A stretch of 64,000 nucleotides of DNA from an uncultured delta proteobacterium (GTDB lineage Bacteria > Desulfobacterota > WTBG01), in NCBI GenBank assembly GCA_963793865.1, contig CAWCBP010000008.1, forward strand, positions 288,001 through 352,000, given 5' to 3'. The number at the start of each line of letters is the position of its first letter. Within the stretch, counting starts at the first letter, position 1. This document shows, piece after piece, positions 19,627-64,000 of the stretch. The position numbers and the translations under genes were made by a program. Under the pieces are notes generated by a model that was not told where the DNA came from, did not search any database, and worked only from the letters and a program-made list of their open reading frames with translations.

Positions 19627-19717
19627 GTGCACTAATCGAAAGGGCAAACCCCGGGCAACCGGGGGACGCAAAGCTACGATCCCCTCAGGGGAAGTCGGGT
19701 TGCTGAAATTAGCGCAC
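19627..19717 (+). ncRNA. c-di-GMP-I (GEMM-I) riboswitch aptamer
   Basis: AGGGCAAACC-CCGG-GCAA-CCGG-GGGACGCAAAGC...GGGTTGCTGAA, closed by P1 GTGCACTAAT/ATTAGCGCAC. Confidence 0.93.
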
Positions 19718-19746
19718 TGCTTGAAAAAGAGCAACCCGGTTTTTTT
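19695..19746 (+). terminator. Riboswitch expression-platform intrinsic terminator
   Basis: TCGGGTTGCT (19695-19704, inside the aptamer) pairs with AGCAACCCGG (19730-19739), followed by T7. Confidence 0.85.
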
Positions 19747-19958
19747 ATTGTCTCAGAGTGAGGGGGCATGAATGGAAGGAGGTGATGCGGAAAGCCATAC
19801 GAAATGAAAGAGAGGTGATATTTGTAGTTAAGCCACAGAAGCAAAGAAGATGCAGCAGCAGTACAACAGTATCAAGCAAGAAATCGCGATTTCAGTAAGT
19901 TTATGTTTTTAGTTCGATCATCAAATAATTTGATCAGCAAAGAAATGGAGGAGAAGAA

Positions 19959-20867
19959 ATGAAGAAATATATTGTATGTTTGATAGGCCTGGTGATGGCT
20001 CTCGGTTTTATCGGGATGTCATCAGCGGCCATCGTGACCGATCCAACCGGTGATAAATTTGGCAGCGGCCCCACCGATATTACCGCAGCACGGGCTGAAC
20101 AGGAGACAAGGACTGACGGGGTTACTGTACTGAAAGTTTCCTATACCGCCACACCCAACATCGGCGGCATCATGTTATTTGAAGCCGATGTTGATAGCAA
20201 CACCGTTACGGGCGGAAATATAAGCATGACCGGTATCCCGGTTTTACCCTGCCCCTGCAAGTCAACCCCTGGTATCGATGTGGCGATCATGGTGATGAAC
20301 AGAGACCAAGCGGCAACTTCCAACTCTGCCATGTGTGCAGGCTGTTCTGATTCTGGGTCTGCTTCATGTGCCAGGAAGCGGTGGTATGGTGAGTGGTATG
20401 CGGTGGCATCAGGAACGGGAACCACGGACACAACCGGCTTCATGAGGGGTTTTCTGGATCCCACCACCTTTTATTCGACCATCACCAGTAAGAGCTACAC
20501 CTTCCCCTGGGATACGATCTGTGCTTCGTGCAAATTATGAGATTCCCGTGCCGTGAGCAATATGTCTATGCCGATGCCATTAATCCAGCCCTCACCAAAT
20601 GGCAGCTGAGTGTGTGGACCGATCCGAGCTTTGCTGATCGAGGATGACTTTGCCAATGGCTCAAGCTTCTTCGGCATTTCCGACGTGATTCCCAACGGCA
20701 ATGGCAATCTGGTTGCCGGTGTGGATGTTGCTACTAACCTTACCTTCTGCGAAGGGAATTTTGACAATGACCCGGACGTGGACGGAGGTGATGCCTCCAA
20801 ATTCAAGACCGACTTCGGAAGGAGTGGCTTGAAGAATCCGTGTCCGAATACACCCTGGTTATATTAA
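19959..20867 (+). CDS. Secreted Cys-containing protein with a single C-terminal EF-hand/dockerin-like repeat (frameshifts at about 20520-20640)
   Basis: Signal peptide MKKYIV...SSA; RBS GGAGGAG; tail CEGNFDNDPDVDGGDASKFKTDFGRS...PWLY. Confidence 0.75.
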
Positions 20868-20873
20868 TCTTTT

Positions 20874-21095: not shown

Positions 21096-23007
21096 ATGAA
21101 AAAAATGTATATGATCATATTGGCAGTGGCAGTCGCGCTGTCAGCCGGGCAGGCCTTCGCTCTTCCCGGTGTCTACAACATGGGCGCTGATACTCAGACC
21201 CTGTTAGTGTCCCGCCTGTGAAACAAGAACCATAAGCCTGGATGGAACCGGCTTCGGCACCTCACCGCTGGTGTCGGGCGGTTTTCTTCTGCAGAACAGC
21301 AACGAAACCGCGGTTGATATTACCGCCGTTCAGTGCTATGACGGCGCGCTCACCCCGGCAGTGTGGGATGCGGGCTCATTGATAGTGTTCGATCCCACCG
21401 GGTATCCCGGCGCAGTGTTTGTCGCAGCCTCCAACCTGGGCGCCGGCGTGGTCCCGTCCGCCAACATCCTGGTGTGCGATGTGACCTTCTGCGGCGTGGC
21501 CGCCGGTACTGCCAACCTGTGTGTTGACACGGTGCCTGATTTCGACACCTTTGTTGCCCAGGATGCAACCGTGTATGACCCCAACATCGATGGGGATTGC
21601 ATTGCCGTAACCGTCCAGGATAATCCCTGCGAGTGCAGTATTGCCGGAGCTACCGACAGTTGCGGCAAGTGCTACTGAATCCGGTGACCGCGCAGTATAC
21701 TGCTTCTGGAGATGCAGAATGTGTAGATTCGAGTTTACGCGTATAGCAGCGACTGTACCGCTGGGTACTATTGACCCGGATACAGGTCTTTTAACCGTAC
21801 CTGCTACCACGGATGGTGAGTGCTGTACCATAACAGTAACCGATACTGCCAATACCGATGTTAATACCGGTGATCCGGTTGTCTGCACGCTGCCCATACG
21901 ATATCGTAGCTGGCGTCAGTCTGCAACACCGAAATCGCGCTCGGCAGGGAATGCCCCGGCGAAGCGATTGACGACCCGGCTTACAACAGGCCCGGAAGAC
22001 GCGGTCTTGCCGCCACCTGCGATGACATCATCGACTTCACCGTGTGCACCAACAGCACCGAACCGACATGGTCCGGGGCTTGCCTGGTGTGGACGATCGA
22101 ACCGAACCTGACAGGCGCCACCATTACCCAGATCGATGATTGCTGCTGGAGACTTATTGCTGGCGACACCTGCGACCTGCAAGAGAAGACCTTTACCGAA
22201 GTTGTAACGGTGACCGACACCTGCTGCAACAGCACCGACAGTGTCGAGATCGAATTCGGCAAGGTGATCATTGACATCGGCGACACCAACATTCAGCCCA
22301 ACAGCGAGTCCGGACTGGTCGACATCAGCATGACCAACCTGGATCACTCTGTGCGCGCCATTACCCTGGACATCGCGGCCTGCACCGGTGAAGACAACCT
22401 GGTATGCACGCAGTGCCTGGTTGATGTTGACCGTAGCCTCGATTTCACCTGTTCAGCCAATGAGCAGGCGGACGGAAGCTGCAGAGTGGTTCTGTACTCA
22501 ACCGACCCGGCAGCCGTCATTACGCAGGGCAGAGGCCCCATTGCCCAGATCGTGTACTCGGCAGATGGCGAGCTTGATGTGTGCGGTTCCGATGCCTGCG
22601 TAGATCTGTGCGCGATCAACATCAGCGTATCCGATCAGTTCAACGAAGATCTGTGCACCTGCGCCAGCGCGGGCGAAGTATGCTTCACCACCTGCGGTGA
22701 TATTTATCCCCAGGACTGCATCGGCGGTACCTGCGGCGCTCTGACCTGCTGCGGTGATGGCGTGATCGACCTCTTCGATATCCTCGAGGCGGTTGACATC
22801 ATCCTGAACCTGCAGATTGCCACGGACTGCCAGATCGCAAACGGTGATGTGCCCAACGGTATGCCGCCTTACTGCGGTAATCCTCCGGGGACACCCAACT
22901 GTCAGGGTGACGGCGACATCGATATCTTTGATGTGCTGGTCATGATTGACAAGGCCCTTGGTAAGATGAACTGCTGCGATTACTGCCTGTACGGCAATAT
23001 CTTCTAA
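21096..23007 (+). CDS. Secreted scaffold-like protein: cohesin-like A, Ig-like, cohesin-like B, dockerin-like II (several frameshifts)
   Basis: AGGAGG then MKKMYMIILAVAVALSAGQAFA; ORFs 21271, 21641 and 22042 are consecutive pieces; the 3' half is paralogous to 28262-29336 and 46101-47176. Confidence 0.75.
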
Positions 23008-23313: not shown

Positions 23314-23952
23314 ATGATCAGACAGTTTTCCAAATTATTGACAGTTGCGGGACTCATACTTCTTACAGGCAATTATCTTATTACTCCGGCAGAGGCGGCA
23401 GAGGAAGGAAAGAAGACGGAAGCCGTCAAGGCGGCGCCGGCAGCGACGCCCACGGAAGCGGCACAGGCTGTTGAAGGGGCGAAACCCGCCGAGGCGGCTA
23501 AAAAGGGAAAGACGACGGAGCCGTCTCTGGGGCTGAAGGCCGGCGGTAAGAATACCGCCAAACTTGAGCTGCAGAGCGATATCCCGGTGCGGGCCCTTCA
23601 GTTTTCCGTTACCGGGGCGAAAATCACCGAGGTGCGCACCACCGGCCGGGCAAAAGGCTTTTTCTCGAAGTTCAACGAGCAAAACGGCATGGTGATCATC
23701 CTTTCGACGACCGGGGAAGAGATTGCCCCGGGCAAGGGCGAGGTGGCTGAAATCGTGTGTGATAAACCGGCAACCGCCAAACTCGCGGATGTGAAAATAG
23801 TGGGGAAACGCAGTGACGGAAGTTGCCTGATGGTTATAACTATTATGGCTAAGGGAATGACAGGTGGATTGTTTCATTCAAGACAAGAGCGGAAACAGGA
23901 GATGCGGATCGCATGTATCTCTTGTTTTGCTGTCTTCAAGACCCTTAGATAA
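23314..23952 (+). CDS. Exported protein with A/K/E/P linker and a single Cys-poor cohesin-like domain (true stop may be near 23816)
   Basis: Signal peptide ...AEA; LELQSDIPVRALQF...TTGRA..F..NE...IILSTTGEEIAPGKGEVAEI aligns by eye to class B cohesin-like repeats. Confidence 0.65.
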   Translation: MIRQFSKLLTVAGLILLTGNYLITPAEAAEEGKKTEAVKAAPAATPTEAAQAVEGAKPAEAAKKGKTTEPSLGLKAGGKNTAKLELQSDIPVRALQFSVTGAKITEVRTTGRAKGFFSKFNEQNGMVIILSTTGEEIAPGKGEVAEIVCDKPATAKLADVKIVGKRSDGSCLMVITIMAKGMTGGLFHSRQERKQEMRIACISCFAVFKTLR

Positions 23953-24112: not shown

Positions 24113-26498
24113 ATGATCAAGAAAGCGCTGTTAGTAGTTTCCGGCTTGCTCTTTTTTTCCCCAGTAAGCCAGGCGCAGGTTACCCTGAGCGTTGGCACCG
24201 GTTCGGGGTACCGGGGATCCGATAATAATGTCGTGTCGGTCAACCTGAGCAATGCCGCCGACAGGGTCAGAAAGGTGCAGGTGGAGCTGTGCGATGTCGA
24301 TAATTACATGAGCGTGGCTCAGGTGCGATACCACCACCCGCAGCCGTGACGGGTTTACCTGCGGTGTCATCAGCCTTCCTTCGGGATGCTCGCGGATTAT
24401 TTTAAATTCGCCCGGCGGATATATTCCAACGGGCACCGGATCCATAATGACCCTGCGGTATAATGTCGTTGCCGGCGCACCCGCCGGGGAGTGCAGGGCG
24501 ATCAATCAGCAGAACATATTCGCCTATGATGAGCTGGGAAGCCTCTTGAGCGTCACCCCGGTTTCGGGGAATTTCTGTTTCAACAACTGCACCCTGACCA
24601 CCCAGTGCCAGGACGGACTCTACTGCAACGGGACCGATGGCTGCTCGGGCGGCGCCTGCACCCACACCGGCAATCCCTGTCCCGGCACCCAGTGCAACAC
24701 CTGCCAGGAGGACACCAATACCTGTTATGACCCGGCCGGCACCATTTGCACCGATGACGGCCTTTTCTGCAACGGGGATGAGATCTGCAACGGGAGCGGC
24801 TCATGCACTCACTCCGGCAGCCCCTGCCCCTATGCCACCTGCGTTGAAGCAACCGACGAGTGCAGCTGCTTCGGATCGGGCGAGAGCTGCGAGGACAACA
24901 AGTTCTGCAACGGGGATGATTACTGCCTGTTCGGGGTGTGCGAGCACGTGGGCGATCCATGTGCCTCACAGGATTTGCATTGCGCCGAAGCGGTGGACCG
25001 CTGCATCTGCTTTATCGATGCCGAGTGCAATGACGGCAATGCCTGCACCGATGACCGCTGTGAAACTGACGGCAGCTGCAGGGGGATCAATAACACCGCT
25101 CCCTGCGACGACGGCATCTTTTGCAACGGGGCAGACACCTGCTCCTGCGGGTCCTGCAGCCACGCGGGGGACCCCTGTGCCTATCCCAATGTGTGCTATG
25201 AGAATACCGATACCTGCACCACCCGGGAGGTTGAGGTGAACCTGGGGTTCGGCTCGGGCAACATCGGAACAACCGACAGACAGGTAAATGTGCAGCTCAG
25301 AAACCCCAGCAGGGCGGTGAGCGGGTTGCAGATGAATGTCTGCGATGAGTATGACCACCTGATTGCAACCAGTTGCACCGTAAGCTCGGCCGCACCTGAG
25401 TTGCTGGCCACAAAATTCGACTGCGCGGTGAACGAATTGGAAAACGGCTGTGCCAATGTGGTGCTGACGCCCAAAGGATCGGCGCCCATAAACCCCAATT
25501 CAACCACACGGACCATTTTTAACATAGGCTTTGACGTAGGCCTCTGTACGACAAGGAGCACGGCCTGCACCAACTGCGGCACCGACTGTTACTATCCGGG
25601 TGCGACCTGCTCCGCCGGCGCCGCCAACTGTTACCGCTATGACCGGAACAAGCTGTGTAATTGTGATCAAAACGGATGTTATTCGCTGGAAGATATCTGT
25701 CCTCCGGTTGATACCGGGGATGTGTGGGTGACAATTAGCGATCTCCTGGTGGTGGACCCCTTTAACAGTGTGCTGGGGGCGCTGGCGGTGCCCACCCCCT
25801 TCGCGAATTTTGAGATCGCCTGTGACGGCAACGCTGACTGCTCCAGGGGAAGCGTCTGCAGCACCGACACCTGCAGCGGCGGCTCCTGCATCCATACCTC
25901 GAGCGGCGTGGTAACCTGCAATGACGGCCTCTTTTGCACCACCACCGACCGCTGTTCCGGCGGGTATTGCGTGGGTACGGGCGACACCTGCGGCTCGATA
26001 TTTCTCTGCAACGAGGAGACGAACGCGTGCTTCAGCTGCACCGGTGACGCCGACTGTGACGGTGTCCCTGACGAGGGCGACAACTGCGCGGGCATTCCCA
26101 ACGGACCGGACGGCGGCTTCTGCACCGCGGGCACCAATTCCGGGACGCCCTGCCTGGAACACTGCGATTGCGGTCTGATCGCGAGCTACTGCAGCACGGG
26201 CCAGGAAGACAGCTACCCGCCGGGCGGCAATAACATTGGTGATGCCTGCGAGTGCGAAGGCAACTTTGACACCGATACGGATGTGGACGGGACCGATGCT
26301 TCCAAATTCAAAACTCATTTCGGCAGGAGCAAGATTCAGAACCCCTGCACCAACGTAAGCACCTGCAATGGGGACTTTGAGTGTGACCAGGACGTGGACG
26401 GCACTGACGCCAGCCTGTTTAAGAAGGATTTCGGACGAAGCTCCATAAAGAATCCATGCCCCGTCCGGCCCGTTACGGTGTGGTGCGCGTATCCGTAA
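24113..26498 (+). CDS. Secreted Cys-rich protein: two cohesin-like B domains, CxDGLFCNG repeats, TSP3, dockerin-like I (frameshift at about 24320-24440)
   Basis: Signal peptide ...SQA-QVTLSVGTGSG; second module VNLGFGSG...LQMNVCD...NELENGC; tail ECEGNFDTDTDVDGTDASKFK...CNGDFECDQDVDGTDASLFK. Confidence 0.82.
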
Positions 26499-26968: not shown

Positions 26969-29336
26969 ATGAAAGCGATACGCAAGCTTTTCAGGTCCTG
27001 CCTGGTAGCAACCGCGTTTCTTCTGTCCGCCGCTGCCTTCCCCGCCATGGCACAGCCGTGGGTATACAATCTATACGGCGCAAATGAGCTGCCGGACGGT
27101 GTTTCATACGGCACGGTTTCTTTGAGCTACATTTACGACAGCGGCAAGCGCGGTGTCAGACTTACCGTGACCGCCAATGATTCCATTCTTTCCCCCTGCA
27201 GCAATTTCGGAATTCAGCGTTTCGGATTTAACACCGTCCTGGCAAATCCGCCGGCTGACTGTCCCGAAGGTGACGCCGATGGGGACGGGATTTCCGACTG
27301 CTGTGGATAATTGTGCCGACCATGCCAATGGCCCGGGAGGCGGCACCTGTACCAGGGGTACCATCGGCGCCGCCTGCATAAACAATAGCGACTGCGGAGC
27401 GGACGGCTTCTGCAGCAGGGCTCAGGAGGATAATTATCCGCCCCCCGGCAACAAGTACGGCAACGCCTGCGAATGCGAGGGCAATTTTGACAGGGACCAG
27501 GATGTTGACGGTACTGACGGGTTTATCTTTAAAGAGGATTTCGGGCGGTACCCAATTTTCAACCCCTGCACCGATGACCTGCCCTGCTACGGTGATTTCG
27601 AGGAAGACAGGGATGTCGACGGAACGGACGCGATAAAATTCAAGGAGGATTTCGGGAGAGCACCGCGCAATAATATCTGCCCCAGTTTTTGGGCAAACGT
27701 GAGGATGACCCTGCCTCCGGAATGGTCAGGCACCTTTGGAAGTTACCAGTACAGCGAATTCGGCAGGTTTCAGATCGATGTCCGGGGCGATGGATCGAGC
27801 CGGGTCAATCCCCTGATTATAGATATTTACCACCAGACGGAGAACCTGTTCTACACTGATTTTGTCGTGCCCAATGAAATGGGCCAGTTTTTTTCCGCGC
27901 ATATAGCTGACTTTTCCTACCAGGGCTCTGAGTGCATGAGCGGCTACTTTGCCTCTCCCGGCGGCGGCCCGCTGACCACGACCACTTCCAGCATAAAGAC
28001 GACCACCACCACCTCTGCAGCCACAACGACGACGACTGCCCCGACCACAACTACATCGGAGATGACCACAACCACCTCCGTGTCGACGACAACCACCTCC
28101 CAGCCGGTGATCACCACCAGCACCACCACCACCTCTGTGCCCACAACGACGACATCCGTCCCGAGCACGACCACCTCGGAGATGACCACCACCACCTCTG
28201 TGTCCACGACGACCAGCTCTCAGCCGGTGATCACCACCACGGTACCGACTACCACCACCTCGGCACCCTCTCTCTGCAGGGGAGAGATATACAAGGGCGG
28301 CACCTGTGACCTGGGCCTGCCCATTGATGATCCGGCCTATAACCGGCCGGGGAGAAGGGGGCTCTCGCTTACCTGCGAGGATATTGTTGACTTCTGCGTC
28401 TGCACCGACTGCGTGAATCTTGATCCGGCGTGCCTGGTGTGGACGATAGATCCCGCCGAGCCGTATTTGAGCATCGTCGCCAACCCCAACGGGACCGCGC
28501 GGCTGACGGTGGGAGAATCCTGCGATCAGCTTGAGGAAATCAGGGAATACACGGTGACGGTGACCGACACCTGCAACGGCTGGTCGGACAGCGTGGTGCT
28601 TGAGCTGGGCAAGGTGACCCTGGATGTCACCGATGTTTCCATCCAGAAGGGAAGCGACGCATTTATGGTGCCGGTCAAGCTGGTGAACCGCTATAACACG
28701 GTACGGGCGCTGAGCGTGGATATCTGTGAGTGCGACGGAGGCGATGACAGGGCGGTATGCAGCGGCTGCGTCAGCGATCCCCTCCGCGCCCTAAATTTCA
28801 CCTGCCTTGCCGCCGAGATGGAGGATGGCTGCTGCAGGGTTCTGCTGTATGCCACCAATCCCGCCGCCTTTATTTTGCGGGGTGCGGGGACGGTCGCCAA
28901 CGTCATGTACGAGGCTGCGGAAGAATTTGACGGCTGCAGTTGCTTGCGGCCGGTCAACCGGCAGGTCTCGGACCAGTTTAATGAAGATCTGTGCGCCTGC
29001 CAGTCGCCGGGGGATCTTTGCTTCAAGTCCTGCGGAGACATCTACCCCCAGGACTGTCTCGATCCGGGCTGCGCGACCTGCGGGGACAATGCGGTTGATC
29101 TTCTGGACATACTGGAGGCGGTTGATATTATTCTGGGCAATCAGACGCCTACCTCCTGCCAGCTTGATCACGGTGATGTGCCCAACGGCTATCCGCCGTA
29201 TTGCGGTGAACCTGCCGGCAGCCTCGACTGCGGGTCGGACGGAGACATTGACGTGCTCGATCTCCTGGTCATCATTGACATGGCTCAGGGGAGGGCCAAC
29301 TGCTGCGACTACTGTTTGTTCAGGAAGATTTTTTAA
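26969..29336 (+). CDS. Secreted protein: beta-rich N-domain with inserted TSP3/dockerin-like I module, Thr linker, Ig-like, cohesin-like B, dockerin-like II (frameshift near 27300)
   Basis: Signal peptide ...AMA; ORFs 26969 and 27177 join at DGISD/AVDNC; paralogue of 45132-47176. Confidence 0.82.
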
Positions 29337-54268: not shown

Positions 54269-56569
54269 ATGGCTGGAACCTATTCATTGAGGCGAGCATG
54301 GGAAAAGCGAGCGTCAGAAAAAAAAGCAGGAAGACGTCCAGGGGAGCCAGCAGTTGATAACGGGTCAGCCTCTGAAGCCGGCTGCCTGCAAGCTCCGGCA
54401 CAAGAGGCCGAGTGCAAAAGGAAGTGGTACCTGCTCCTGGCTGGCGTGCTGCTTTTAACCGCTGCCTGCTATGGTAATTCCCTGAACAATACCTTTGTGT
54501 TTGATGATGCCCTGGTGATTGCTGAAAATCCCGGGATACGCGGCATTGAAAATATTCCCCGGCTGCTGGGATTCACAACCGGCCGCACTTCCTACCGGCC
54601 CATCAGGATGGTCTCCTACGCACTGGATTATACGCTTAACAAGAACCTCTGGTGCCAGATCGGGAATTGCCGGGAATCGGATCCCGGGCTCTATCCCCCG
54701 GGATACCATATTGGCAATATTGCCTACCATCTGCTGACGGCATTGCTGGTTTTTCTGGTCGTTTCGCGCCTGGCCGGAAATTTCCGGGTTGCGCTGCTGG
54801 CAGCGGGCATATTTGCCCTCCACCCGGTGCACACCGACAGCGTGACCTATCTCGCGGGCAGGAGGGACATCCTGTTCACCCTGTTTTATCTGGCCGGGTT
54901 TTATTTTTTTCTTCGCTACCGGCAGGAAAAGCGGCTGTCCCTGATGATTTTCGCCTTTATCATGTATATGCTCAGCATGGGGAGCAAGGAAATGGGGGTT
55001 ACTCTCCCCGCGCTCTTTTTGTGCTATGACATGGTTGAAAATTTTTCCCCGCAGGGTATCGGCCCGGGAGGCCGTGCCCGGGAGCTTTTCAAGAGTTTTA
55101 AAAAGAGTGTGGCCCAATCCGCGTATCTCTATGTTCCCCTGTTCATCGGCGCTCTTGCTTTCATCTACTATAAAGTTTTCGTTGCGTCACCATCCTACCA
55201 GAAGGCCTATTACGGGGACAGCGTTTTCATCACCTTTCTCACCGTGGTTAAGATTCTGGCGCACTACATTCAATTGCTGATATATCCCGTCAATCTCATC
55301 GCGGATTATTCCTACAACGCCTTTCCGCTTGCAACTTCATTGTTTGAGCCCGCGGTCCTCTTCTCCCTTGTGCTTCTCGCGGGGGTGGTGTACGCGCTCC
55401 TCCGCTTGTTGGACGGCCACAAGCTGCCGGCATTCGGCGGCGCCTGGTTTTTCCTGACCCTGCTCCCGGTCTGCCATATTTTTCCCCACCACGAGCTGCT
55501 GGCTGAACACTATCTCTATCTGCCCTCGGTGGGTTTCTGCATTGCGGCGGCAGCGCTGTTCGACACCTTCATGAAGGAGAAAAAGTACCGCTTATATGCT
55601 TCAGCCGGTTGTGTCGCCGTCCTCATTATCTTTTCGCTGCGCGTGGTTGACAGAAACAGGGATTGGAAGGACAGCCTTACCCTTTATGAAAAAACCGTCA
55701 CAACCGTACCTGAATGCGCCCGCGCAAACTCCAATCTCTGCGAGGCCTATACCAATGAGGGAAGGCTGGATGAGGCCCTGGCGGCATGCAGGCAGGCGCT
55801 GGCCATCAAGCCGGACCAGATCGAGGCGAACCATAATCTCGGCACCGTGTATGCGCGCAAAGGAATGGCGGAAGAAGCGATTGCCAGCTACAAACAGGCC
55901 CTGGCTTTAAGGCCGCGCTACGCGAAGGCATATTTCAATATCGGTGTGCTGCTTTATCAAAAGGGTGATCTCGAGGGTGCAGTTGATGCGTATAAGCAGG
56001 CGCTTGCCATCAGTCCTTACTATGCTGAAGCGAGAAAAAATCTGGGCATGGCCTACAGCGCAATGGGAAGATTTCAGGAGGCAATTGAGCAGTACAGGTG
56101 GGCAATGGCCATCAAACCGAACTATACCGGCGCCCGGAACAGCCTGGCAGCCGCCTACCTGCAGCAGGGTGCGTTCGATAATGCCATAGCGGAAATGGAA
56201 TTGGCGGTGGCCGGCAACCCCGATGACGCGGACGCGTATTTCAGCCTGGGATATGCCTATTCACAAAAGGGGGATACTGCCAAAGCGGTTGACGCGTATA
56301 AGCGTGCGATTGCCAAGGGCCTGGTGAGGGCGGAAGTCCACAGCAATCTCGGCAATCTCTACCTTCAGGAGGGGAGGCTTGATGAGGCAATCAGTGAATA
56401 CCTGCAGGCGATTTCCATCCAGGATAATTTTGCCGGCGCCCATAATAACCTGGCCATGGCATATTTTAAAAAGCAAGAGTATGCCATGGCCATAAAACAC
56501 TGTGACAGGGCGGCGGAACTCGGTCTCAGCAATCCGGCCCTGCTGAAGGATCTCCTGCCCTATCGCTAG
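54269..56569 (+). CDS. TMTC-like (DUF1736 + about 8 TPR) protein O-glycosyltransferase
   Basis: FVFDD, YRP, LHPVHTDSV..LAGRRDIL, SKE, AEHYLYLPS, RNRDW, then a TPR array. Confidence 0.88.
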   Translation: MAGTYSLRRAWEKRASEKKAGRRPGEPAVDNGSASEAGCLQAPAQEAECKRKWYLLLAGVLLLTAACYGNSLNNTFVFDDALVIAENPGIRGIENIPRLLGFTTGRTSYRPIRMVSYALDYTLNKNLWCQIGNCRESDPGLYPPGYHIGNIAYHLLTALLVFLVVSRLAGNFRVALLAAGIFALHPVHTDSVTYLAGRRDILFTLFYLAGFYFFLRYRQEKRLSLMIFAFIMYMLSMGSKEMGVTLPALFLCYDMVENFSPQGIGPGGRARELFKSFKKSVAQSAYLYVPLFIGALAFIYYKVFVASPSYQKAYYGDSVFITFLTVVKILAHYIQLLIYPVNLIADYSYNAFPLATSLFEPAVLFSLVLLAGVVYALLRLLDGHKLPAFGGAWFFLTLLPVCHIFPHHELLAEHYLYLPSVGFCIAAAALFDTFMKEKKYRLYASAGCVAVLIIFSLRVVDRNRDWKDSLTLYEKTVTTVPECARANSNLCEAYTNEGRLDEALAACRQALAIKPDQIEANHNLGTVYARKGMAEEAIASYKQALALRPRYAKAYFNIGVLLYQKGDLEGAVDAYKQALAISPYYAEARKNLGMAYSAMGRFQEAIEQYRWAMAIKPNYTGARNSLAAAYLQQGAFDNAIAEMELAVAGNPDDADAYFSLGYAYSQKGDTAKAVDAYKRAIAKGLVRAEVHSNLGNLYLQEGRLDEAISEYLQAISIQDNFAGAHNNLAMAYFKKQEYAMAIKHCDRAAELGLSNPALLKDLLPYR

Positions 56570-56740: not shown

Positions 56741-57766
56741 TTAGAGTACTTTGCCCTCGACGATAATAGTTGCCGCGACGGTCTTGCCCTGGCACTGCGT
56801 CTGAACGGTTACCGTTTCCCTGAATTTCTCTTTGGGTAATTTGTCCTTATTCAGCGAGATGGTGATGGTGTACTGTTTTCCCGCCTGATCGGCTTTTACC
56901 TCTGCCGTAATCCACTCCTTGCTTGTCTCGATCTTGTTAATACTCAGATCTTCCGACTGCAGATGGCTGATGACGGTGGTTCTCTTGAGGCTCGATGCGT
57001 CGAAGTTTTCCTTGCCGGTATCGATAACGCCGAAATAAAGATATTCGGGGGTGACCTTTATCTCTTTTTTCAGGTTTCCCAGGACCGATATCGAAACCTC
57101 GGGCTTCTTCTTTGATTCCGTCTTGAGCGCGATTCTTCCCCGGAAGGTATCTTTAATGCCGCCCCGCGTCTTAATCCCAAGGGTGTATTCCTTGTCCTTC
57201 TTCTCATTTTTCAGGGTGTATTCTATTTTATCGTCGATGTTTGAAGAAACCCCGGTTATGTTGAGAGGCTCATCAGTATTGGTGGTAATGCGCAGAACCT
57301 GTTCCAAACTGTCCCCGTAAAATCCGCTGAACATCACCCGGGGGGCCGGCTCTACGCTGATGAAGGGTTTTATCGTACCCCCGATGGAAACCGTGACCTT
57401 GGGCTGTTCGGGATCGTTTGAAAAAATAATCGCGCTCTGTCTTGTCGCTCCCATTTTGCCGGGTGTGCTGATTCTCAGGGTTACTTTGCCCTCCTGACCA
57501 GGAGGAATAGCCTTATCAAAATCGGCTACCGTGCACCCTCACCCCGGTTTGACATTGGTAATGTCGAGCTGGGCCGTGCCGGTATTCCTGATGGTGAAGG
57601 TGTGAATGATATCCTCACCCTCCCATAGCTCTCCGGCGTCATAGTCAGGGGCATCGATGGTGAGCCGGGGCTGGTCTCCTCCCTGCGCGAAGAGGCAGTG
57701 AACAGTAGAAAAGGTAAAGAGCAGGCAAAGCATGGTCAGAAACAGGTTTTTTTTCATAAACAACAT
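56741..57766 (-). CDS. Exported DUF1573-like Ig-domain protein, probable selenoprotein (UGA 57541-57539)
   Basis: ORFs 57539-57805 and 56741-57454 are in one frame; readthrough gives NVKPG-U-GCTVADFDKAIPPGQEGKV; has a signal peptide. Confidence 0.88.
57507..57529 (-). promoter_or_regulatory. Putative bacterial SECIS hairpin
   Basis: GTAGCC-GATTTTGATAA-GGCTAT, 9 nt after the UGA; 22/23 identical to 50022-50044. Confidence 0.7.
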
Positions 57767-57933: not shown

Positions 57934-59169
57934 CTAGTAGTCGAATGTGAATTTCGTGGGTCCCATCTTGCCATCGTATACGGTCGAGCTGTTCCCCACG
58001 CTGGTGTCAAAATTCGGGACGGGGGCAATAGTGAATTCGCAGTTTCCTGTGCAGGTGCCGTAGAGCCGTGCAATGTTAATGGTGTCGTTTTGATCAGGTG
58101 CAACGCTGCCCAAATTACCCACAATAACCATATAGGTGCCGGGCCCCGAGGGGTTCGGGACTTTATTGGTCATGTCACTGTCCCAGGGTCCGCTCAAAGA
58201 AGAGCCGTCATAGACATCGGCACCGGTGATATTCATTTGAGATGGATCGTACTGGATCATGAAGCCGCTGGTAATAAGTTTTTCCGGTACATCTGATAAC
58301 CGGATGTCGACTTCCATTTGGTTGCCTGATCCCTCGTTTATGGCCCCGGCGGTATCTATTGCAAAACGGGGGGCACCTTCTATGGTCTGTTCCTGTTGAT
58401 TACCGCCGCTGCCGGGGAGGTTGTTTTCCTCTTCCATATTTGCATACAGGTCGGTGAGCGCGCTTTCCGCCGCCCTGCTCACCGCGGGATTGGGATCCTC
58501 AAGGGCCGATGTCAGCGGTCCCAGCGCGCCGTCACCCATTCTGGCCAAACCCTGCACCGCATTTACCTTGGCCGCTTCATCTCCCTCCTGCAGATCCTTT
58601 GACCATTCTTTCAGCGATTTAACGGTGTTTTCCCTGGGGGGCGTTTTTAAAACCTGTTTGTTTTCAGCCGGTTTGTTTTCGGCTTTATCGGTGCCGGCAG
58701 GATTTTGAGCGGACTTGCTGGCGCTTATGATCAAAGGTTTTTCAGATGACCCGCCTTTATTCTGTTCCTGAATATAAATCCTGACCTCCCTCAATGTGCC
58801 GGTTCCGGATCCCTTGTTCGCATCTGCCTGGTCATAAATGAAGACACGGTTATAGGAGGCCAGAACCTTATCTATTCCCTGATCAATGCCGAAGTTTGCA
58901 AATCGCACCATCAGCCTGTTCTGGCAAATAGAGGGCGGCAGGGAAAAGCTTATGCCGGTCTGGTCCGCAAGCTTTCGCAACACCTCTTCCAGAGGCGCGT
59001 CCTTGATATCTACCGACAACAGGTTATTTTCCAGCTTTGCGGTAAGAGAACCCATTGACAAGGCTGATTTCACCTCAGGTTTTCCCTGGCTCAAGCTGCA
59101 GAACCCTGCGGCAGATGAAAAAACAACAATCGTTATCACGCAGGCTATAAATAGTCTTTTCATGGGCAC
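57934..59169 (-). CDS. Exported STN/secretin-N0-like + HEAT + cohesin-like A protein
   Basis: LSVDIKDAPLEEVLRKLADQTGI; ALEDPNPAVSRAAESAL; DVPEKLITSGF..YDP...YDG...GPWD...NLG...PNFDT. Confidence 0.75.
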   Translation of the reverse strand: MPMKRLFIACVITIVVFSSAAGFCSLSQGKPEVKSALSMGSLTAKLENNLLSVDIKDAPLEEVLRKLADQTGISFSLPPSICQNRLMVRFANFGIDQGIDKVLASYNRVFIYDQADANKGSGTGTLREVRIYIQEQNKGGSSEKPLIISASKSAQNPAGTDKAENKPAENKQVLKTPPRENTVKSLKEWSKDLQEGDEAAKVNAVQGLARMGDGALGPLTSALEDPNPAVSRAAESALTDLYANMEEENNLPGSGGNQQEQTIEGAPRFAIDTAGAINEGSGNQMEVDIRLSDVPEKLITSGFMIQYDPSQMNITGADVYDGSSLSGPWDSDMTNKVPNPSGPGTYMVIVGNLGSVAPDQNDTINIARLYGTCTGNCEFTIAPVPNFDTSVGNSSTVYDGKMGPTKFTFDY

Positions 59170-59491: not shown

Positions 59492-61816
59492 TTAATAAGT
59501 GCACCACGGATCTGTTGCACAACTTGGGCAGCTGATACTGTATGAACTCCTGCCGAAATCCGCTTTAAAAAGTGCCGCGTCAGATCCATCAACATTCCCG
59601 TTGCAGCTAAAATCACCGTTGCAAAGAGCAACGGCGGTACAGGGGTTCTTGTATGAACTCCTGCCGAAATCCGCCTTAAAAACTGCCGCATCTGATCCAT
59701 CCTGGTCCAGGTCACCATCGAAGTTGCCCTCGCACTCGCAGGCATTACCGCAACCATTGCCGGCAGGAGGATAACTGTCGTCCTGATTGGGATCAAAAGT
59801 AGCGGGGCAAACATCACCGGCACAGACATTATCCCCGTCGGCCGTATCCGTACAGCTGTCACATGCATCGCCGGTCAAATCCTCGTCCGCATCTTCCTGG
59901 TTCATGCTGCAGAATCCGCCTGTCCCGCACTCGCTGGTGTTGTTTCCCGGAATGTTGCAGGGATCCCCGATATTGCTGCCGGCGGTGCAGGTGCCGCCGC
60001 TGGGCCCATTCTGGATGGCCGGGCAATTGTCACGATAATCGATGACCCCGTCATTGTCGGTGTCATCTTCAGCAAAGGCGCTTCCGAAGGAATATATTTT
60101 CCCGTTGGTGGAAGAATAGTAGACATGCCCGTCCGCCAGGGCGGGAGAAGGAACCGAATACCAGGCCACCACGTAGGGATCATGGCCCCTCACGATGAAT
60201 TCATTAGCCTGGATACTGCAGTTGTCATCCTTGCAGAACTGGTACTCCCACACGGGGGTCAGCGTGTTCGGGTCAGTAACGTAATCGTAGCAGAAGAGTT
60301 TCTCTCTCCCGTAGGTGTTTGAATTGATCCAGGCACGGTCATAGTCGGTGGCGGCCACATAGAGCAGGCCGTCCTGTGGAGAAATGGATATGCCGCTCGG
60401 CCCGGGCAGCCAATAGCCGGAAACAGGATGAGGATCGCCGACATTCCAGGTCGGCACACCCAGAAATGCTTCTTTAATGATCCGGCCCGTATCCTTGTTG
60501 AGCACAAACATGCGCCCGGTATCGGCTATGCCGATCACATACCCCCGGGATTCATCAACCGCAGGCGCTGAACAGAGGGCGGTATGACCCCTTACATTGA
60601 AGCCCGCATGGTATCCCCACTGCACCTGGCCGGTATCCACGTTCAGTGCCCAGAGGGCGCCGTCACCGCCGGGAGCATAAATAGTGTTGCCCGAAATGGC
60701 CTGGGTTCCTCCCTGAGCCAGTGGAATAGTTCCATGATGCCAGAGCTCGGCCCCGGTGTCTGCGTCAACCGTGCCAAACTGCCCGTAGTGATAATCGGTG
60801 GCGGTGTCCGCCTCGATGAAAACCTTGCCGTTCTGTACCGGCGGTATGTTGGTTACCCCGCATCCCCGCGGATTCCAGGTCCATAGGACCGAACCATTAT
60901 CTTCGTCTAATCCGTAAAAGTATCCGTCACGACCGGCCCAGTAGTTGGTGGCATCATTGCCGATGGTGGGCCAGGGATATCCCGGCTGCCCTTCAGTCAC
61001 ATAGGCCCAGGGCCGGAATATGGCATAAAAGCTGGGAAGGAATGACCCGATGTAGAGCTTGCCGTTGGAAATGGAGGGCGGGGAAAGATGCCAGGCCCAC
61101 TTCTGGTTATACCAGGGTTTCCCTACGTTCGGTCCCCCCGGGTCTTTGTAGGGTGTCCTCTCCCAGATGGTCGAGCCGTCATTCATGTTAAGCGAGATGA
61201 CCCGCCCGTCAAAGGTCCCGAAAATGACGCAGCCGTTGGTGCCGTAATTGGGGTCCATGGTGGGCCCGGTGATGAACTGGTCGTAACCGGCAGGAAAAGG
61301 AAGCGGGGCGATGAGAGAAAAATCAGTGCAGTCCGGCTGGGTGGTGGTGCACTCAAAACACCAGGAAGGACAAGTGCCGGTGGTATAGCACACCCCGGTG
61401 TTTCCCTCCAGCATGGGAATGTCATTGTAACACCAGTCGGTGGGGGCTCCGGCCGGTTCGGTGGGCGCCTGCCAGAGAAAGTGTTGGTGCCAGAGCAGGC
61501 CGCCGGTAAACTGATCGTTGGCTTGGATTACCCCGGAACCCGCCGTGATTATCATTCCCCGGTCCACCACCGAGGGACCCCTGGAATCGGCGCGAGTTGT
61601 GGGAGCCCAGGCGCGAAATTCGCGGTCTTGCATCCACAGCTTGGCTGCGGTGGCTGGATAGCCGCTGTCCGTTGCCGCGCCGCTGTTCAATAAATCATGC
61701 CTGAAGCTCGGCCAGGGATCTGCCGTCGGTCCCACAGCCAGACCCGTTCCCTGGATGCTGCACATTACAAAAATGATGAGAGGGAGAAAATACGCGAACA
61801 CTGTTTTCTTGCTCAT
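59492..61816 (-). CDS. Secreted PQQ-type/BamB-like beta-propeller protein with TSP3 and dockerin-like I tail
   Basis: WPSFRHD..NSG; repeated DG...A...tG...W blades; tail ECEGNFDGDLDQDGSDA...CNGDFSCNGNVDGSDA. Confidence 0.85.
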   Translation of the reverse strand: MSKKTVFAYFLPLIIFVMCSIQGTGLAVGPTADPWPSFRHDLLNSGAATDSGYPATAAKLWMQDREFRAWAPTTRADSRGPSVVDRGMIITAGSGVIQANDQFTGGLLWHQHFLWQAPTEPAGAPTDWCYNDIPMLEGNTGVCYTTGTCPSWCFECTTTQPDCTDFSLIAPLPFPAGYDQFITGPTMDPNYGTNGCVIFGTFDGRVISLNMNDGSTIWERTPYKDPGGPNVGKPWYNQKWAWHLSPPSISNGKLYIGSFLPSFYAIFRPWAYVTEGQPGYPWPTIGNDATNYWAGRDGYFYGLDEDNGSVLWTWNPRGCGVTNIPPVQNGKVFIEADTATDYHYGQFGTVDADTGAELWHHGTIPLAQGGTQAISGNTIYAPGGDGALWALNVDTGQVQWGYHAGFNVRGHTALCSAPAVDESRGYVIGIADTGRMFVLNKDTGRIIKEAFLGVPTWNVGDPHPVSGYWLPGPSGISISPQDGLLYVAATDYDRAWINSNTYGREKLFCYDYVTDPNTLTPVWEYQFCKDDNCSIQANEFIVRGHDPYVVAWYSVPSPALADGHVYYSSTNGKIYSFGSAFAEDDTDNDGVIDYRDNCPAIQNGPSGGTCTAGSNIGDPCNIPGNNTSECGTGGFCSMNQEDADEDLTGDACDSCTDTADGDNVCAGDVCPATFDPNQDDSYPPAGNGCGNACECEGNFDGDLDQDGSDAAVFKADFGRSSYKNPCTAVALCNGDFSCNGNVDGSDAALFKADFGRSSYSISCPSCATDPWCTY

Positions 61817-61890
61817 GCTATACCTCCTTTAACTATTGTTCTGTTGCAATAATCAATGCGTAAAAATATGCAATTATTCAGCGCATGTGA

Positions 61891-62448
61891 TCAATGAAAT
61901 CCGTCGGCAAAGTAGTCCAGCAGTTCAATCACCTCCGGATTTTTAGGATCAAGCGCAACTGCTTTATTAAGGCTCAGCAGGGCATTGCGCGTAGAACCTA
62001 TTTTTATGAATGCCCTTGCCAGCAGAATATGCGTATCAAGGTCGTCCGGATTGACAGTCAGATGAGCCGTCAGATAGCGCATGGCTACTTCGGTTTTTCC
62101 CTGATCCGAATAATGGGCTACCTTTTCCATGATACCCTGTTTGATGGTTGGCAACGCTGCCGTCTCGTCTTGATTGAGGGAAATGGATTTTTTAAATTCT
62201 CCAATTGCCTCCTTCAGGGATTCCTTTTTAAGGTAGGCAAGGCCCAGCTTGAGGTGCGCATCAGCATCATCAGATTTGTTCTTAAGGTATACATTGAAAT
62301 TCTCTATAGCCGCATCATAATTGCCCTTATCCAGAGCTTCTACCCCAAGCTGGTAGTTTTGAGATACAGTGCCCGCACATCCTGCAAGGAAAATGCAGAG
62401 CACAATAGTTACACAATGTATGGTTTTTCTCATTCGAATTTTGATCAT
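61891..62448 (-). CDS. TPR lipoprotein
   Basis: Lipobox LAGC; TPR motifs AHLKLGLAY and THILLARAF. Confidence 0.8.
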   Translation of the reverse strand: MIKIRMRKTIHCVTIVLCIFLAGCAGTVSQNYQLGVEALDKGNYDAAIENFNVYLKNKSDDADAHLKLGLAYLKKESLKEAIGEFKKSISLNQDETAALPTIKQGIMEKVAHYSDQGKTEVAMRYLTAHLTVNPDDLDTHILLARAFIKIGSTRNALLSLNKAVALDPKNPEVIELLDYFADGFH

Positions 62449-62596
62449 TCGTATTCGCTGTGTGCCTCGGGTTTATGGTCGGTAGGAGCGGCTTTGAGCC
62501 GCGAATGCCTCACGCATGAACGCGCTCCTGCCGGGATTGCTATACAAGGCCACGATTTTATTTATACTCATATCAACTTTTAGCTAACCTCCCTTA

Positions 62597-64000
62597 TTAC
62601 GGATAAGGGTCGCCGAAGCAGTATATTTTCCCATTGGTGGAGGAGTAGTAGACATGTCCGTCCGCCAGGGCGGGAGAAGGAACAGAATACCAGGCCACCA
62701 CGTAGGGATCATGGCCCCTCACTATGAACTCGTTGGCCTGGGTGCTGCAGTTGTCATCCTTGCAGAACTGGTACTCCCATACCGGGACCAGGGTGTCCGG
62801 ATCCGAGACATAATCGTAGCAGAAGAGTTTCTCTCTCCCGTAGGTGTTTGAATCTATCCAGGCACGGTCATAGTCGGTGGCGGCCACATAGAGCAGGCCG
62901 TCCTGGGGAGAAATGGATATGCCGCTCGGCCCGGGCAGCCAGTAACCAGAAACCGGGTGCGGATCGAACACATTCCAGGTGGGCACTCCCAGAAATGCCT
63001 CTTTAATGATCCGGCCCGTATCCTTGTTGAGCACAAACATGCTCCCGGTGTCGGCTATGCCGATCACATACCCCCGGGATTCATCAACCGCAGGCGCTGA
63101 ACAGAGGGCGGTATGACCCTTTACATTGAAGCCGGCCCAATGGGTCCACTTCACCTGGCCGTCATCGATGTCCAGTGCCCAGAGGGCGCCGTCACCGCCG
63201 GGAGCAAAGAGGGTGTCACCTGAGATTGCCTGGGTTCCTCCCTGGGCAAGCGGAATAGTTCCATGATGCCAGAGCTCAGCCCCGGTGTCTGCATCTACCG
63301 TGGCAAACTGCCCGTAGTGGTAATCGGTGGCGGTGTCCGCCTCGATGAAAACCTTGCCGTTCTGTACCGGCGGTATGTTGGTTACCCCGCATCCCCGCGG
63401 GTTCCAGGTCCACAGGACATCACCATTATCTTCATCCAATCCGTAAAAGTACCCGTCACGACCGGCCCAGTAATGGGTAGCGTCATTGCCGATGGTGGGC
63501 CAGGGATATCCCGGCTGCCCTTCAGTCACATAGGCCCAGGGCCGGAATATGGCATAAAAGCTGGGAAGGAATGACCCGATGTAGAGCTTGCCGTTGGAAA
63601 TGGAGGGCGGAGAAAGATGCCAGGCCCACTTCTGGTTATACCAGGGTTTCCCTACGTTCGGTCCCCCCGGGTCTTTGTAGGGTGTCCTCTCCCAGATGGT
63701 CGAGCCGTCATTCATGTTAAGCGAGATGACCCGCCCGTCAAAGGTCCCGAAAATGACGCAGCCGTTGGTGCCGTAATTGGGGTCCATGGTGGGCCCGGTG
63801 ATGAACTGGTCGTAACCGGCAGGAAAAGGAAGCGGGGCGATGAGAGAAAAATCAGTGCAGTCCGGCTGGGTGGTGGTGCACTCAAAACACCAGGAAGGAC
63901 AAGTGCCGGTGGTATAGCACACCCCGGTGTTTCCCTCCAGCATGGGAATGTCATTGTAACACCAGTCGGTGGGGGCTCCGGCCGGTTCGGTGGGCGCCTG
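62597..64000 (-). CDS. Second PQQ-type beta-propeller paralogue without dockerin tail (5'-truncated by window edge)
   Basis: Near-identical to 60085-61471 (offset 2529 nt) but ends GKIYCFGDPYP*. Confidence 0.88.
   Translation of the reverse strand, partial: QAPTEPAGAPTDWCYNDIPMLEGNTGVCYTTGTCPSWCFECTTTQPDCTDFSLIAPLPFPAGYDQFITGPTMDPNYGTNGCVIFGTFDGRVISLNMNDGSTIWERTPYKDPGGPNVGKPWYNQKWAWHLSPPSISNGKLYIGSFLPSFYAIFRPWAYVTEGQPGYPWPTIGNDATHYWAGRDGYFYGLDEDNGDVLWTWNPRGCGVTNIPPVQNGKVFIEADTATDYHYGQFATVDADTGAELWHHGTIPLAQGGTQAISGDTLFAPGGDGALWALDIDDGQVKWTHWAGFNVKGHTALCSAPAVDESRGYVIGIADTGSMFVLNKDTGRIIKEAFLGVPTWNVFDPHPVSGYWLPGPSGISISPQDGLLYVAATDYDRAWIDSNTYGREKLFCYDYVSDPDTLVPVWEYQFCKDDNCSTQANEFIVRGHDPYVVAWYSVPSPALADGHVYYSSTNGKIYCFGDPYP

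Follow-up and report, generated by a model that had tools for sequence, protein, structure and literature searches.

The window analysed here is a stretch of 64,000 nucleotides (G000:C8:288001-352000) from the 3.85-Mb genome, assembled into 14 contigs, of an uncultured Thermodesulfobacteriota-type bacterium that is presumed from its lineage to be diderm and anaerobic. We read it as an arm of a cohesin-dockerin display system that is non-cellulosomal, lineage-restricted and spread across the whole genome, and put the probability of this reading at roughly 65%. Secreted cargo proteins would end in a cysteine-rich, Ca-binding dockerin, here called Doc1, and scaffold or adaptor proteins would carry cohesins of the classes CohA and CohB, in many cases with CohA joined directly to a following dockerin of another class, Doc2. 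An earlier note on this DNA had described about 13 signal-peptide proteins assembled from two cohesin and two dockerin classes, and this description was reproduced: 13 proteins (G1-G7, G11-G13, G15, G19 and G20) have a signal-peptide-like N-terminus, as called by eye from the translations, and are built from CohA, CohB, Doc1, Doc2, TSP3, cysteine repeats and threonine linkers. At least one module was found in 12 of the 13, and the remaining protein, G3, has a weak partial CohA match only. Bare positions are window coordinates throughout, and G1 to G22 is our own numbering of the genes.

The predicted structures place CohA and CohB in the cohesin β-sandwich fold and Doc2 in the dockerin fold with its duplicated loop-helix (F-hand). 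The CohA-Doc2 unit of G5 (28614-29333), modelled with AlphaFold from a 40-sequence alignment that included public homologs, reached a pLDDT of 91 and a pTM of 0.76, and its top 40-plus Foldseek matches were all cohesins (best 6kge_A, E 2.8e-10, TMt 0.79). VIA-align superposed residues 1-140 of the model on the cohesin 6kgc_A (Z 16.4, root-mean-square deviation [rmsd] 2.2, 135 residues aligned) and residues 138-228, which correspond to Doc2, on 2ccl_B, a binding-competent type I dockerin from C. thermocellum (Z 9.0, rmsd 1.2 Å, 62 of 62 residues, 23% identity). Further dockerin matches to Doc2 were 4fl4_A (Z 8.1) and 5m2o_B (Z 7.6). For CohB, a model of the G13 segment 47836-48549 had pLDDT values above 90 over residues 40-170, the core of the module, and the best 30 rows of its Foldseek search were likewise all cohesins (top 6kgf_C, E 1.6e-7, TMt 0.69).

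The cohesin and dockerin folds proposed in the earlier note are thus upheld by structure prediction for CohA, CohB and Doc2, and Doc1 is dockerin-like by sequence only. The Doc1 alignment contains 2 repeats with an invariant D-x-D-x-D-G-x-D motif followed by a helix-like F-K-x-D-F-G-R; residues D25, D27, D29, G30 and D32 are invariant in the first repeat, and the second shows a matching pattern. The predicted Ca loop is shorter than the 12-residue Ca-binding loop of classical dockerins. At least 7 cysteines are conserved in Doc1 and 11 in Doc2, and the conserved tail of Doc1 ends in W-C-x-Y. Pfam Dockerin_1 matched 16 of 25 Doc1 copies at E<=1 (best 2.4e-6), one N-terminal variant outside the window scored 42.8 bits and passed the cut-off, and the nearest ESM-Atlas cluster was Dockerin type I/TSP3 (score 0.94). 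When profiles were compared to PDB sequences, the top matches were dockerins for Doc1 (2y3n_B, 1daq, 2mte and 8ajy, at a non-significant E of 0.14-0.96) and cohesins for CohA (6kgc_A, E 0.035, full length) and CohB (3ul4_A and 3kcp_A, E 0.1-0.3). In the window itself, Pfam called Cohesin (PF00963) and Dockerin_1 (PF00404), the families named in the earlier note, but under the gathering score: the best Cohesin matches were 18.2 and 17.7 bits versus a cut-off of 24.1 (E 0.003-0.004), most cohesin copies had no Cohesin match at E<0.01, and Dockerin_1 was matched at E<=0.01 by G7 only (20.8 versus 22.9 bits, E 4e-4).

The modules were counted with iterated hidden Markov models, each seeded with one copy per class, in a six-frame translation of the whole genome. 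The window contains about 8 CohA, 4 CohB, 6 Doc1 (one of them a half-repeat) and 3 Doc2 modules. The CohA copies are all on the plus strand (22264-22686, 24179-24581, which is split by a frame break, 25230-25676, 28614-29024, 29644-30069, 30730-31131, 46454-46864 and 51078-51506), as are the Doc2 copies (22681-23004, 29019-29333 and 46859-47173). CohB was located at 21256-21603, 32346-32780 and 47902-48336 on the plus strand and at 57949-58362 on the minus strand, and Doc1 at 20691-20858 (the half-repeat), 26202-26492, 27423-27710, 34564-34839 and 44376-44672 on the plus strand and at 59495-59785 on the minus strand. Just past the window there are 2 more CohA modules (C8:358695-359096 and C8:360265-360711) and another Doc1 (C8:357443-357724).

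Across the genome we obtained 19 CohA domain matches in 16 frames, 19 CohB matches, 75 Doc1 matches in 74 frames and 9 Doc2 matches, 8 of which lie directly behind CohA. The locus that the earlier note described as a cluster is not self-contained: because Doc1 genes cluster at 4 further places (C1 113-134 kb, C11 64-73 kb, C11 167-181 kb and C14 197-230 kb), the window locus is one of at least 5 clusters of a genome-wide system and not an island. Single proteins combine CohA with Doc1, CohB with Doc1, CohB with CohA and Doc2, or Doc1 with Doc2, and no protein in this genome has more than 2 cohesins. One protein of 211-218 amino acids (G000:C1:1175543-1176196, minus strand) consists of little beyond a signal peptide, Doc1 and Doc2 and is a candidate double-dockerin adaptor; its gene lies directly downstream of a riboswitch-led CohB-CohA-Doc2 gene.

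The positions of Doc1 within proteins bear on the alternative that it is no cohesin ligand and acts chiefly as a tag for sorting or export at the C-terminus, read by a secretion or attachment machine as are other C-terminal domains of surface proteins in diderms. A tag would suit the 55 of 75 matches that are extreme C-terminal, the conserved tail, the very diverse cargo and the sharp restriction of the Doc1 family to one lineage. It would not suit the 14 N-terminal and 6 internal copies, one within a loop of G5, and Doc1 matches Dockerin_1 and no sorting-signal family. Furthermore, Doc1 co-occurs with cohesins, and no dedicated sorting enzyme was seen among the window proteins. We consider it quite unlikely that Doc1 serves mainly as such a tag.

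The distribution of the modules was studied in a set of 31 genomes, namely our own (G000) and 30 relatives, which are kin and not independent samples. Doc1 was present in 8 of the 31 genomes and at least one cohesin class in 7 of these 8, and none of the 23 Doc1-negative genomes contained a cohesin class. The numbers of Doc1, CohB and CohA matches were 78, 18 and 19 in G000; 16, 7 and 12 in G001; 18, 5 and 6 in G002; 56, 0 and 16 in G003; 2, 0 and 2 in G005; 2, 1 and 0 in G006; 4, 0 and 0 in G007; and 20, 6 and 1 in G008. In G003, which is of the same genus, a frame of 1376 amino acids (G003:C2:86941-90472, minus strand) contains 5 CohA matches; it looks like a true multi-cohesin, scaffoldin-like protein, of which no equivalent was seen in our own genome. 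Outside the family, Doc1 was found in none of 20 genomes of the class, and 300 other genomes from the phylum yielded weak matches (E 1e-13 to 1e-18) in 3, so that, by these searches, the module system appears confined to its own bacterial family and rare elsewhere in the phylum. A search of 1.84 billion proteins with a profile of the CohA-Doc2 unit gave 282 representatives of clusters at E<=1e-3, which points to a family that is real but rare.

A second alternative accepts the folds and rejects the pairing: the modules would be generic Ig-like spacers and Ca-binding, disulfide-locked stabilisers of secreted proteins that work independently, clustered through duplication and domain shuffling only. 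Because all module combinations co-occur within single proteins, no specificity rule can be read from them, and G007 has Doc1 without cohesins; both fit this alternative. The restriction of the cohesin classes to genomes with Doc1 speaks for binding partners instead, as does the superposition of Doc2 on a binding-competent dockerin. An excess of dockerins over cohesins, stalked proteins with a single cohesin and the 5-CohA frame in G003 also form the pattern of an assembling system. We therefore regard the absence of specific pairing as improbable and retain as the preferred reading the display system, in which the modules would bind one another.

To characterise the putative cargo, the 58 Doc1 frames of at least 200 amino acids outside the window were compared to Pfam (E<=1e-5). 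No glycoside hydrolase was found in any of these 58 frames or among the window proteins. No Pfam family at all was assigned to 24 of the frames, TSP_3 occurred in 11, Lcl_C in 8, peptidases in 5 (S8 and M1 twice each, M14 once), rhodanese in 3 and BNR_4 in 2. Families represented in one frame each were Metallophos, CBM96, PQQ_2, a multihaem cytochrome, GSDH, Abhydrolase_5, Beta_helix, Laminin_G_3, FG-GAP, CARDB and an ice-binding-like roll. The window contributes the β-helix of G7, the PQQ_2 propeller of G20 and domains without a family. The lack of glycoside hydrolases is as the earlier note had supposed; the adhesin-like payload that it proposed accounts for part of the cargo only, which consists largely of enzymes and Lcl_C proteins.

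The only Rfam element in the window is an aptamer of the cyclic di-GMP (c-di-GMP)-I clan (CL00126) at 19634..19708 on the plus strand, which scored 61 bits with RF03167 (cut-off 59) and 66.5 bits with RF01051 (cut-off 35). It is followed by an expression platform (19696..19746, plus strand) with a predicted terminator of a 10-bp hairpin and U7, in which 19696-19705 pair with 19730-19739 in the minimum-free-energy fold of 19630-19755. The 5' arm of the terminator is the 3' strand of the second stem of the aptamer, bases 19696-19705 being shared. Because the predicted terminator competes with the aptamer, the simplest reading would be a transcriptional ON switch, in which the ligand relieves termination.

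We noted that a strong terminator (31935-31964) follows G6. This terminator, REP-like repeats between the genes and the strand layout, with minus-strand genes beyond 56.7 kb, rule out that all 44 kb are under the control of the riboswitch as a single unit, and the riboswitch can therefore at most govern G1 and perhaps G2-G6. The GEMM riboswitch of the earlier note is a real aptamer, then, and one that recurs, but it does not stand at the head of the entire 44 kb. In total, 8 c-di-GMP-I aptamers over the cut-off were identified in the genome, and for 4 of the 8 (the window copy, C1:726944, C1:1178586 and C4:262312) a module was encoded in the first or second listed downstream open reading frame of at least 80 amino acids. 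The aptamer at C1:1178586 is located 72 nucleotides ahead of the gene for a CohB-CohA-Doc2 protein. A fifth aptamer has a Doc1 protein 3.4 kb downstream, and the other 3 have no module within 6 kb. The order aptamer-G1-G2-G3-G4 is furthermore kept in 2 relatives, L044 and L043. The link between cyclic-dinucleotide riboswitches and the module system is real and recurrent.

It was also noted that 3 genes directly behind riboswitches encode a single Doc1 repeat, or half dockerin, which is N-terminal in G000:C1:724895-726376 (minus strand) and C4:262471-263730 (plus strand) and C-terminal in G1 (20691-20858). A full-text search of the literature for c-di-GMP riboswitches and dockerins together gave a single publication, an apparently unrelated review.

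Four annotated cohesin/dockerin loci (L043, L044, L045 and L046) served for comparison; a related-locus search of genome contigs confirmed 4 loci among 80 pattern matches. Gene order, which the earlier note proposed to check in related genomes, is conserved in the annotated loci: riboswitch and G1-G4 in L044 and L043, and a block of TMTC-like and OS_HP2 genes in L046, where the order CTD-X (a C-terminal domain described below), OS_HP2, G15, 2 TMTC-like genes, OS_HP2, G19, G20, G21 and G22 is that of the window. The order in L045 is 2 TMTC-like genes, a gene for a CohA protein, OS_HP2 and a gene for a multi-CohA protein. OS_HP2, TMTC-like and cohesin genes were found together in G000, G001, G002 (on 2 contigs), G003 and G008. 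The DsbA-like gene, the 2 TMTC-like genes, the 2 genes for UGA-containing DUF1573 proteins and the gene for an STN/HEAT/CohB protein, all listed in the earlier note, are present in the window. Its proposal that these form a maturation kit belonging to the modules is supported by co-occurrence in 5 genomes for the TMTC-like pair and OS_HP2, and not for the DsbA-like gene (G10); the genes for the membrane proteins G8 and G9 do not co-occur with the modules either.

The 2 OS_HP2-family selenoproteins are G14 (49686..50804, with a DUF1573 Ig-like domain and a selenocysteine [Sec] codon at 50010-50012) and G18 (56741..57756 on the minus strand, Sec codon at 57539-57541). With the TGA read through, NF041425 was matched with 115.1 bits versus a cut-off of 100. 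The Sec codon lies in a U-G-C motif and a conserved hairpin follows the UGA; the 2 copies of the window and the 2 of L046 have the TGA at the same motif, and most matches to the family in relatives contain it as well. The genome also contains the Sec machinery, with a tRNA-Sec and selB (370 bits versus a cut-off of 242). The OS_HP2 family was named in Olavius symbionts (PMC1976440, Table 2). By virtue of their Sec-Gly-Cys motif, these proteins may perform thiol-disulfide chemistry.

G16 and G17 (52316..56569), encoded in tandem, are TMTC/PMT_2-like membrane proteins of the GT-C type that carry TPRs at the C-terminus, and G16 has one frame break near 53610. The TPRs are strong Pfam matches; without them, G17 is marginally over the cut-offs of TMTC_DUF1736 (27.1 versus 27 bits) and PMT_2 (26.7 versus 26.1 bits). 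Among 6 aligned members, TMTC_DUF1736 was matched in all 6 and PMT_2 in 4 (best 8.1e-11), and an F-D-D motif in the N-terminal region is invariant. GT-C enzymes typically have an acidic motif in their first loop. A sequence search with the membrane domain found no relative in the PDB. These conserved tandem transferases would probably O-glycosylate the threonine stalks of the module proteins.

The integrity of the locus had to be considered separately. About 14 frame changes were counted in 8 genes (G1, G2, G4, G5, G7, G12, G13 and G16), and G6, G8-G11, G14, G15 and G17-G20 have no frame break. If all of the breaks were real, the locus would be decaying in this strain and the cluster would largely consist of pseudogenes. 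Besides the number of genes affected, this would agree with the lack of any obvious break in 19 kb of housekeeping genes upstream, going by the list of open reading frames only, and with the 3 insertions that could be placed at break points (21208, 27301 and 32887), none of which is in a homopolymer run. The comparison to metagenome contigs (4 runs, >=90% identity), in which regions without contig cover carry no weight, speaks against decay: the inserted base at 21208 is absent from the contigs of 4 of 4 runs, that at 27301 from all 3 covering runs and that at 32887 from one run. In addition, intact orthologs occur in L044 and L046, the cluster has many unbroken genes, and paralog-rich DNA would be prone to consensus errors, so that we attach a low probability to decay. 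The best public sequencing run contained at most 34% of the sampled words, and RNA runs contained a fraction of 0.05-0.06 of them. Two in-frame TGA codons in G1 were also considered as Sec codons and were rejected as frameshift artefacts, because the L044 ortholog is open there and another window frame matches this ortholog.

Several findings weigh against the display system as we read it. Every cohesin and dockerin copy in the window is under the Pfam gathering score, the PDB sequence-profile matches are each non-significant (E 0.035-0.96), and hhalign related neither Doc1 to Doc2 (probability 0.3%) nor CohA to CohB (0.1%), so that the 2 classes of each kind are very distant from one another. 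G007, a genome of 83% completeness, has Doc1 and no cohesin match. With frame breaks in 8 genes, the copy of this strain might be partly non-functional. The aptamer passes the cut-off of 2 models in one clan, and its ligand may be c-di-GMP or a related dinucleotide. The helper families also occur in genomes without modules, OS_HP2 in 23 and the TMTC-like family in all 31 of the genomes compared. We identified no machinery that would secrete or anchor the proteins, and a surface rather than periplasmic location is assumed. Finally, G10 has no ortholog in the annotated loci L043-L046, and the G8/G9 pair is present in none of 10 relatives from the same family.

Because G8 and G9 were found in none of these relatives and G10 fails the synteny comparison, these 3 genes are a probable insertion of an unrelated cassette. 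G8 and G9 (35006..40519) encode paralogous polytopic membrane proteins of 843 and 880 amino acids with GIFT/ABC_transp_aux/DUF4350 matches in Pfam; against PDB sequences, G8 gave a weak IFT52 GIFT match only. Another family of the class (f6) is without the module system, and 4 of 8 genomes from it have an adjacent G8/G9 pair. G10 (40818..42407) is a DsbA-like thioredoxin-fold protein with a CVHC motif and a duplicated N-terminal domain (Thioredoxin_4 87.7 bits, DSBA 62.3 bits). Its relatives in 21 of the 31 genomes share the C-terminal thioredoxin domain only, at no more than 41% identity, and all 8 genomes from a family that lacks the module system contain relatives of this domain. The N-terminal domain of about 130 amino acids, of which G10 has 2 copies, had no match in the 30 relatives.

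Genes G1 to G17 are located on the plus strand and G18 to G22 on the minus strand. G1 (19959..20867) encodes a signal peptide, a 170-amino-acid domain without a family and the C-terminal half-repeat of Doc1, with 2 compensating frame breaks; its L044 ortholog is a single open frame of 312 amino acids. G2 (21096..23007) combines a signal peptide, CohB, an Ig-like domain, a threonine linker, a second Ig-like domain, CohA and Doc2, with 3 frame breaks, and its L044 ortholog is intact (636 amino acids). G3 (23314..23952) has a signal peptide, an Ala/Lys-rich stretch and a small β domain to which the weak partial CohA match belongs. Orthologs of G3 are found in L044 and L043, and since the CohA model matches the L043 ortholog, the β domain is possibly a degenerate cohesin. 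G4 (24113..26498) consists of a signal peptide, CohA (with one frame break near 24330), cysteine repeats, a second CohA, a cysteine-rich stretch, TSP3 and Doc1, and the ortholog in L044 is intact with 798 amino acids.

In G5 (26969..29336, one frame break at 27301), a signal peptide and an N-domain with an inserted TSP3 and Doc1 are followed by a threonine linker, an Ig-like domain, CohA and Doc2. The TSP3-Doc1 pair (Doc1 at 27423-27710) sits in a loop of this N-domain, which is common to G12, and represents a module insertion and not a terminal fusion. G6 (29554..31707) has a signal peptide, CohA, 5 cysteine repeats, a second CohA, a Gly/Ser/Ala linker and a CFI-box-like C-terminal domain (NF041770, 32.6 bits, under the cut-off of 40). 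G7 (32223..34842) encodes a signal peptide, CohB, cysteine repeats, a right-handed β-helix (Pfam Beta_helix, 31 bits), TSP3 and Doc1, with 2 frame breaks. G11 (42768..44678) has a signal peptide, an N-domain, about 30 short Cys-Pro repeats (repeat family D11), TSP3 and Doc1, and G12 (45033..47176) a signal peptide, the N-domain shared with G5, a threonine linker containing one frame break, an Ig-like domain, CohA and Doc2.

Two proteins share a C-terminal domain of about 100 amino acids, here called CTD-X: G13 (47755..49475; signal peptide, CohB, cysteine repeats, Ig-like domain, threonine linker and CTD-X, with 3 frame breaks) and G15 (50985..52154; signal peptide, CohA, one cysteine repeat, threonine linker and CTD-X), a candidate anchoring cohesin protein with an ortholog of 75% identity in L046. 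The domain, located at 49098-49475 and 51789-52151 in the window, ends about 10 secreted proteins, including these 2 stalked cohesin proteins; copies elsewhere in G000 include those at C1:980104-981324, C8:130631-132046, C8:601469-602932, C14:331628-332383, C12:1176-6605 and C4:240350-244264. CTD-X had no ESM-Atlas match above 0.79, and no Pfam or NCBIfam family was found for CTD-X, for the N-domain of G5 and G12 or for G1. We regard CTD-X as a candidate envelope anchor. The threonine-rich linkers lie at 27948-28283, 45729-46001, 48997-49176 and 51633-51812, and the cysteine repeats form a DNA repeat family of 13 copies. The cysteine content ranged from 1.2% to 11.4% in the 12 frames counted and was at least 4% in 10 of them.

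On the minus strand, G19 (57934..59169) encodes a signal peptide, STN-like and HEAT-like regions, both under the Pfam cut-off, and CohB; its L046 ortholog has 412 amino acids and is 66% identical. G20 (59492..61816) has a signal peptide, a PQQ_2/BamB-like β-propeller (PQQ_2 77.7 bits), TSP3 and Doc1. Of G21 and G22 (61891..64000), the former is a TPR protein and the latter a PQQ_2 propeller paralog without Doc1 that runs past the window end. The PQQ_2 propellers of the window (59492-61816 and 62597-64000) have orthologs in L046 (10726-12846 and 13527-15317, all 4 on the minus strand), both of which contain an in-frame TGA within a conserved W-T-W-x-P-R-G-[TGA]-G-V-T motif, and the window paralogs have cysteine at this position. 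Because Sec and Cys are exchanged at one motif position, the propellers may have a redox-active site and possibly belong to an uncatalogued selenoprotein family.

REP-like palindromic repeats of 3 families occur between the genes of the cluster. One set is found at 23939-24017, 44949-45027, 62465-62543, 42450-42486, 47273-47309, 47413-47449 and 50879-50915, another at 29359-29410, 29494-29545, 45066-45117 and 47203-47254, and a third at 26717-26763, 37623-37721 and 40667-40765. In the 4 metagenome runs, contig depth summed to very high values, and joints were numerous, in the bins 23702-24168 and 29306-29772, which contain such repeats. The REP-like repeats are therefore probably common beyond the locus.

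With the proteins of the window described, the proposed assembly can be set out. The fusion of Doc2 behind the CohA cohesin would allow cargo to plug into adaptors and adaptors into anchors. Anchors close to the cell would likely be the CTD-X cohesin proteins with threonine stalks, G13 and G15, and the STN/HEAT/CohB protein G19. The many disulfides would stiffen the modules, and a rise in the messenger would, through the riboswitch acting as a transcriptional ON switch on the first gene or genes (G1, possibly also G2-G4), yield more surface scaffold. A far more ambitious version may be considered, in which the system amounts to a non-cellulolytic cellulosome: a disulfide-locked, probably O-glycosylated lattice that shows about 70 cargo proteins on a diderm cell and is switched on by a cyclic-dinucleotide riboswitch regulon. 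Its cargo would include peptidases, rhodaneses, lectin-like Lcl_C proteins, redox propellers with a Sec/Cys site and cytochromes. We put this lattice forward tentatively, as a possibility that is on the unlikely side.

The closest structural model is the cellulosome of Clostridia and Ruminococcus, with its type I-III modules and its adaptor and anchoring scaffoldins. Both systems use the cohesin and dockerin folds and have many dockerin-tagged cargo proteins versus fewer cohesins; the proteins with both cohesin and dockerin resemble adaptor scaffoldins, and the threonine-stalked single-cohesin proteins resemble anchoring scaffoldins. C. thermocellum has about 70 dockerins, and our own genome is comparable in number. 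However, no glycoside hydrolase was found here, in the 58 Doc1 frames or the window, and a CBM96 occurs in one frame. The host is of a diderm lineage, and no SLH or sortase anchor was seen. The modules are cysteine-rich and below the Pfam thresholds, with no more than 2 cohesins per protein, and a riboswitch precedes some of the genes. Riboswitches of the c-di-GMP-I (GEMM-I) class are known ahead of surface-protein, pilus and adhesin genes, and the one described here is similar in its terminator-type platform and in the secreted, surface-type proteins encoded downstream, but differs in that these are cohesin/dockerin proteins.

Cohesin and dockerin modules outside cellulosomes have reportedly long been known, and Peer et al. 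are said to have covered them in 2009. The earlier note knew of no described system with this combination; cohesin/dockerin proteins as putative adhesins are already described. In 2 papers, both of which cite Peer et al., non-cellulosomal cohesin/dockerin proteins are reported by domain annotation for anaerobic methanotrophic (ANME) archaea and for the sulfate reducers that live in syntrophy with them, those of the sulfate reducers being highly expressed putative adhesins or matrix parts (PMC9012536, PMC10553843). As far as the main-text passages describe them, they resemble the proteins studied here in being extracellular and non-cellulolytic and in coming from anaerobes of sediments, Desulfobacterota-type bacteria among them; they differ in having been found by domain annotation, which the modules of this genome mostly escape. 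Neither a riboswitch nor TMTC-like or selenoprotein partners nor cysteine-rich variants appear in these passages, and supplementary tables may list relatives.

What is new is a set of cysteine-rich, lineage-restricted modules that escape Pfam, on a scale of about 78 Doc1 matches within a genome of 3.85 Mb, together with a recurrent riboswitch association, a conserved TMTC-like/OS_HP2 neighbourhood and a cargo that is rich in enzymes and free of glycoside hydrolases. The cohesin-dockerin interaction is the best-understood bacterial route to large extracellular protein machines, and almost all knowledge of it comes from cellulose degraders. The finding is moderately interesting as it stands and would be clearly so if binding and riboswitch control hold. 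The disulfide-stabilised modules could serve as building blocks for protein assembly, and if the lattice exists, second-messenger control of a modular extracellular assembly would become testable from sequence alone. If the pairs bind, the system would provide a tractable model for how anaerobic sediment bacteria organise their extracellular proteome and link it to biofilm signalling, and for how bacterial TMTC-like enzymes find their substrates.

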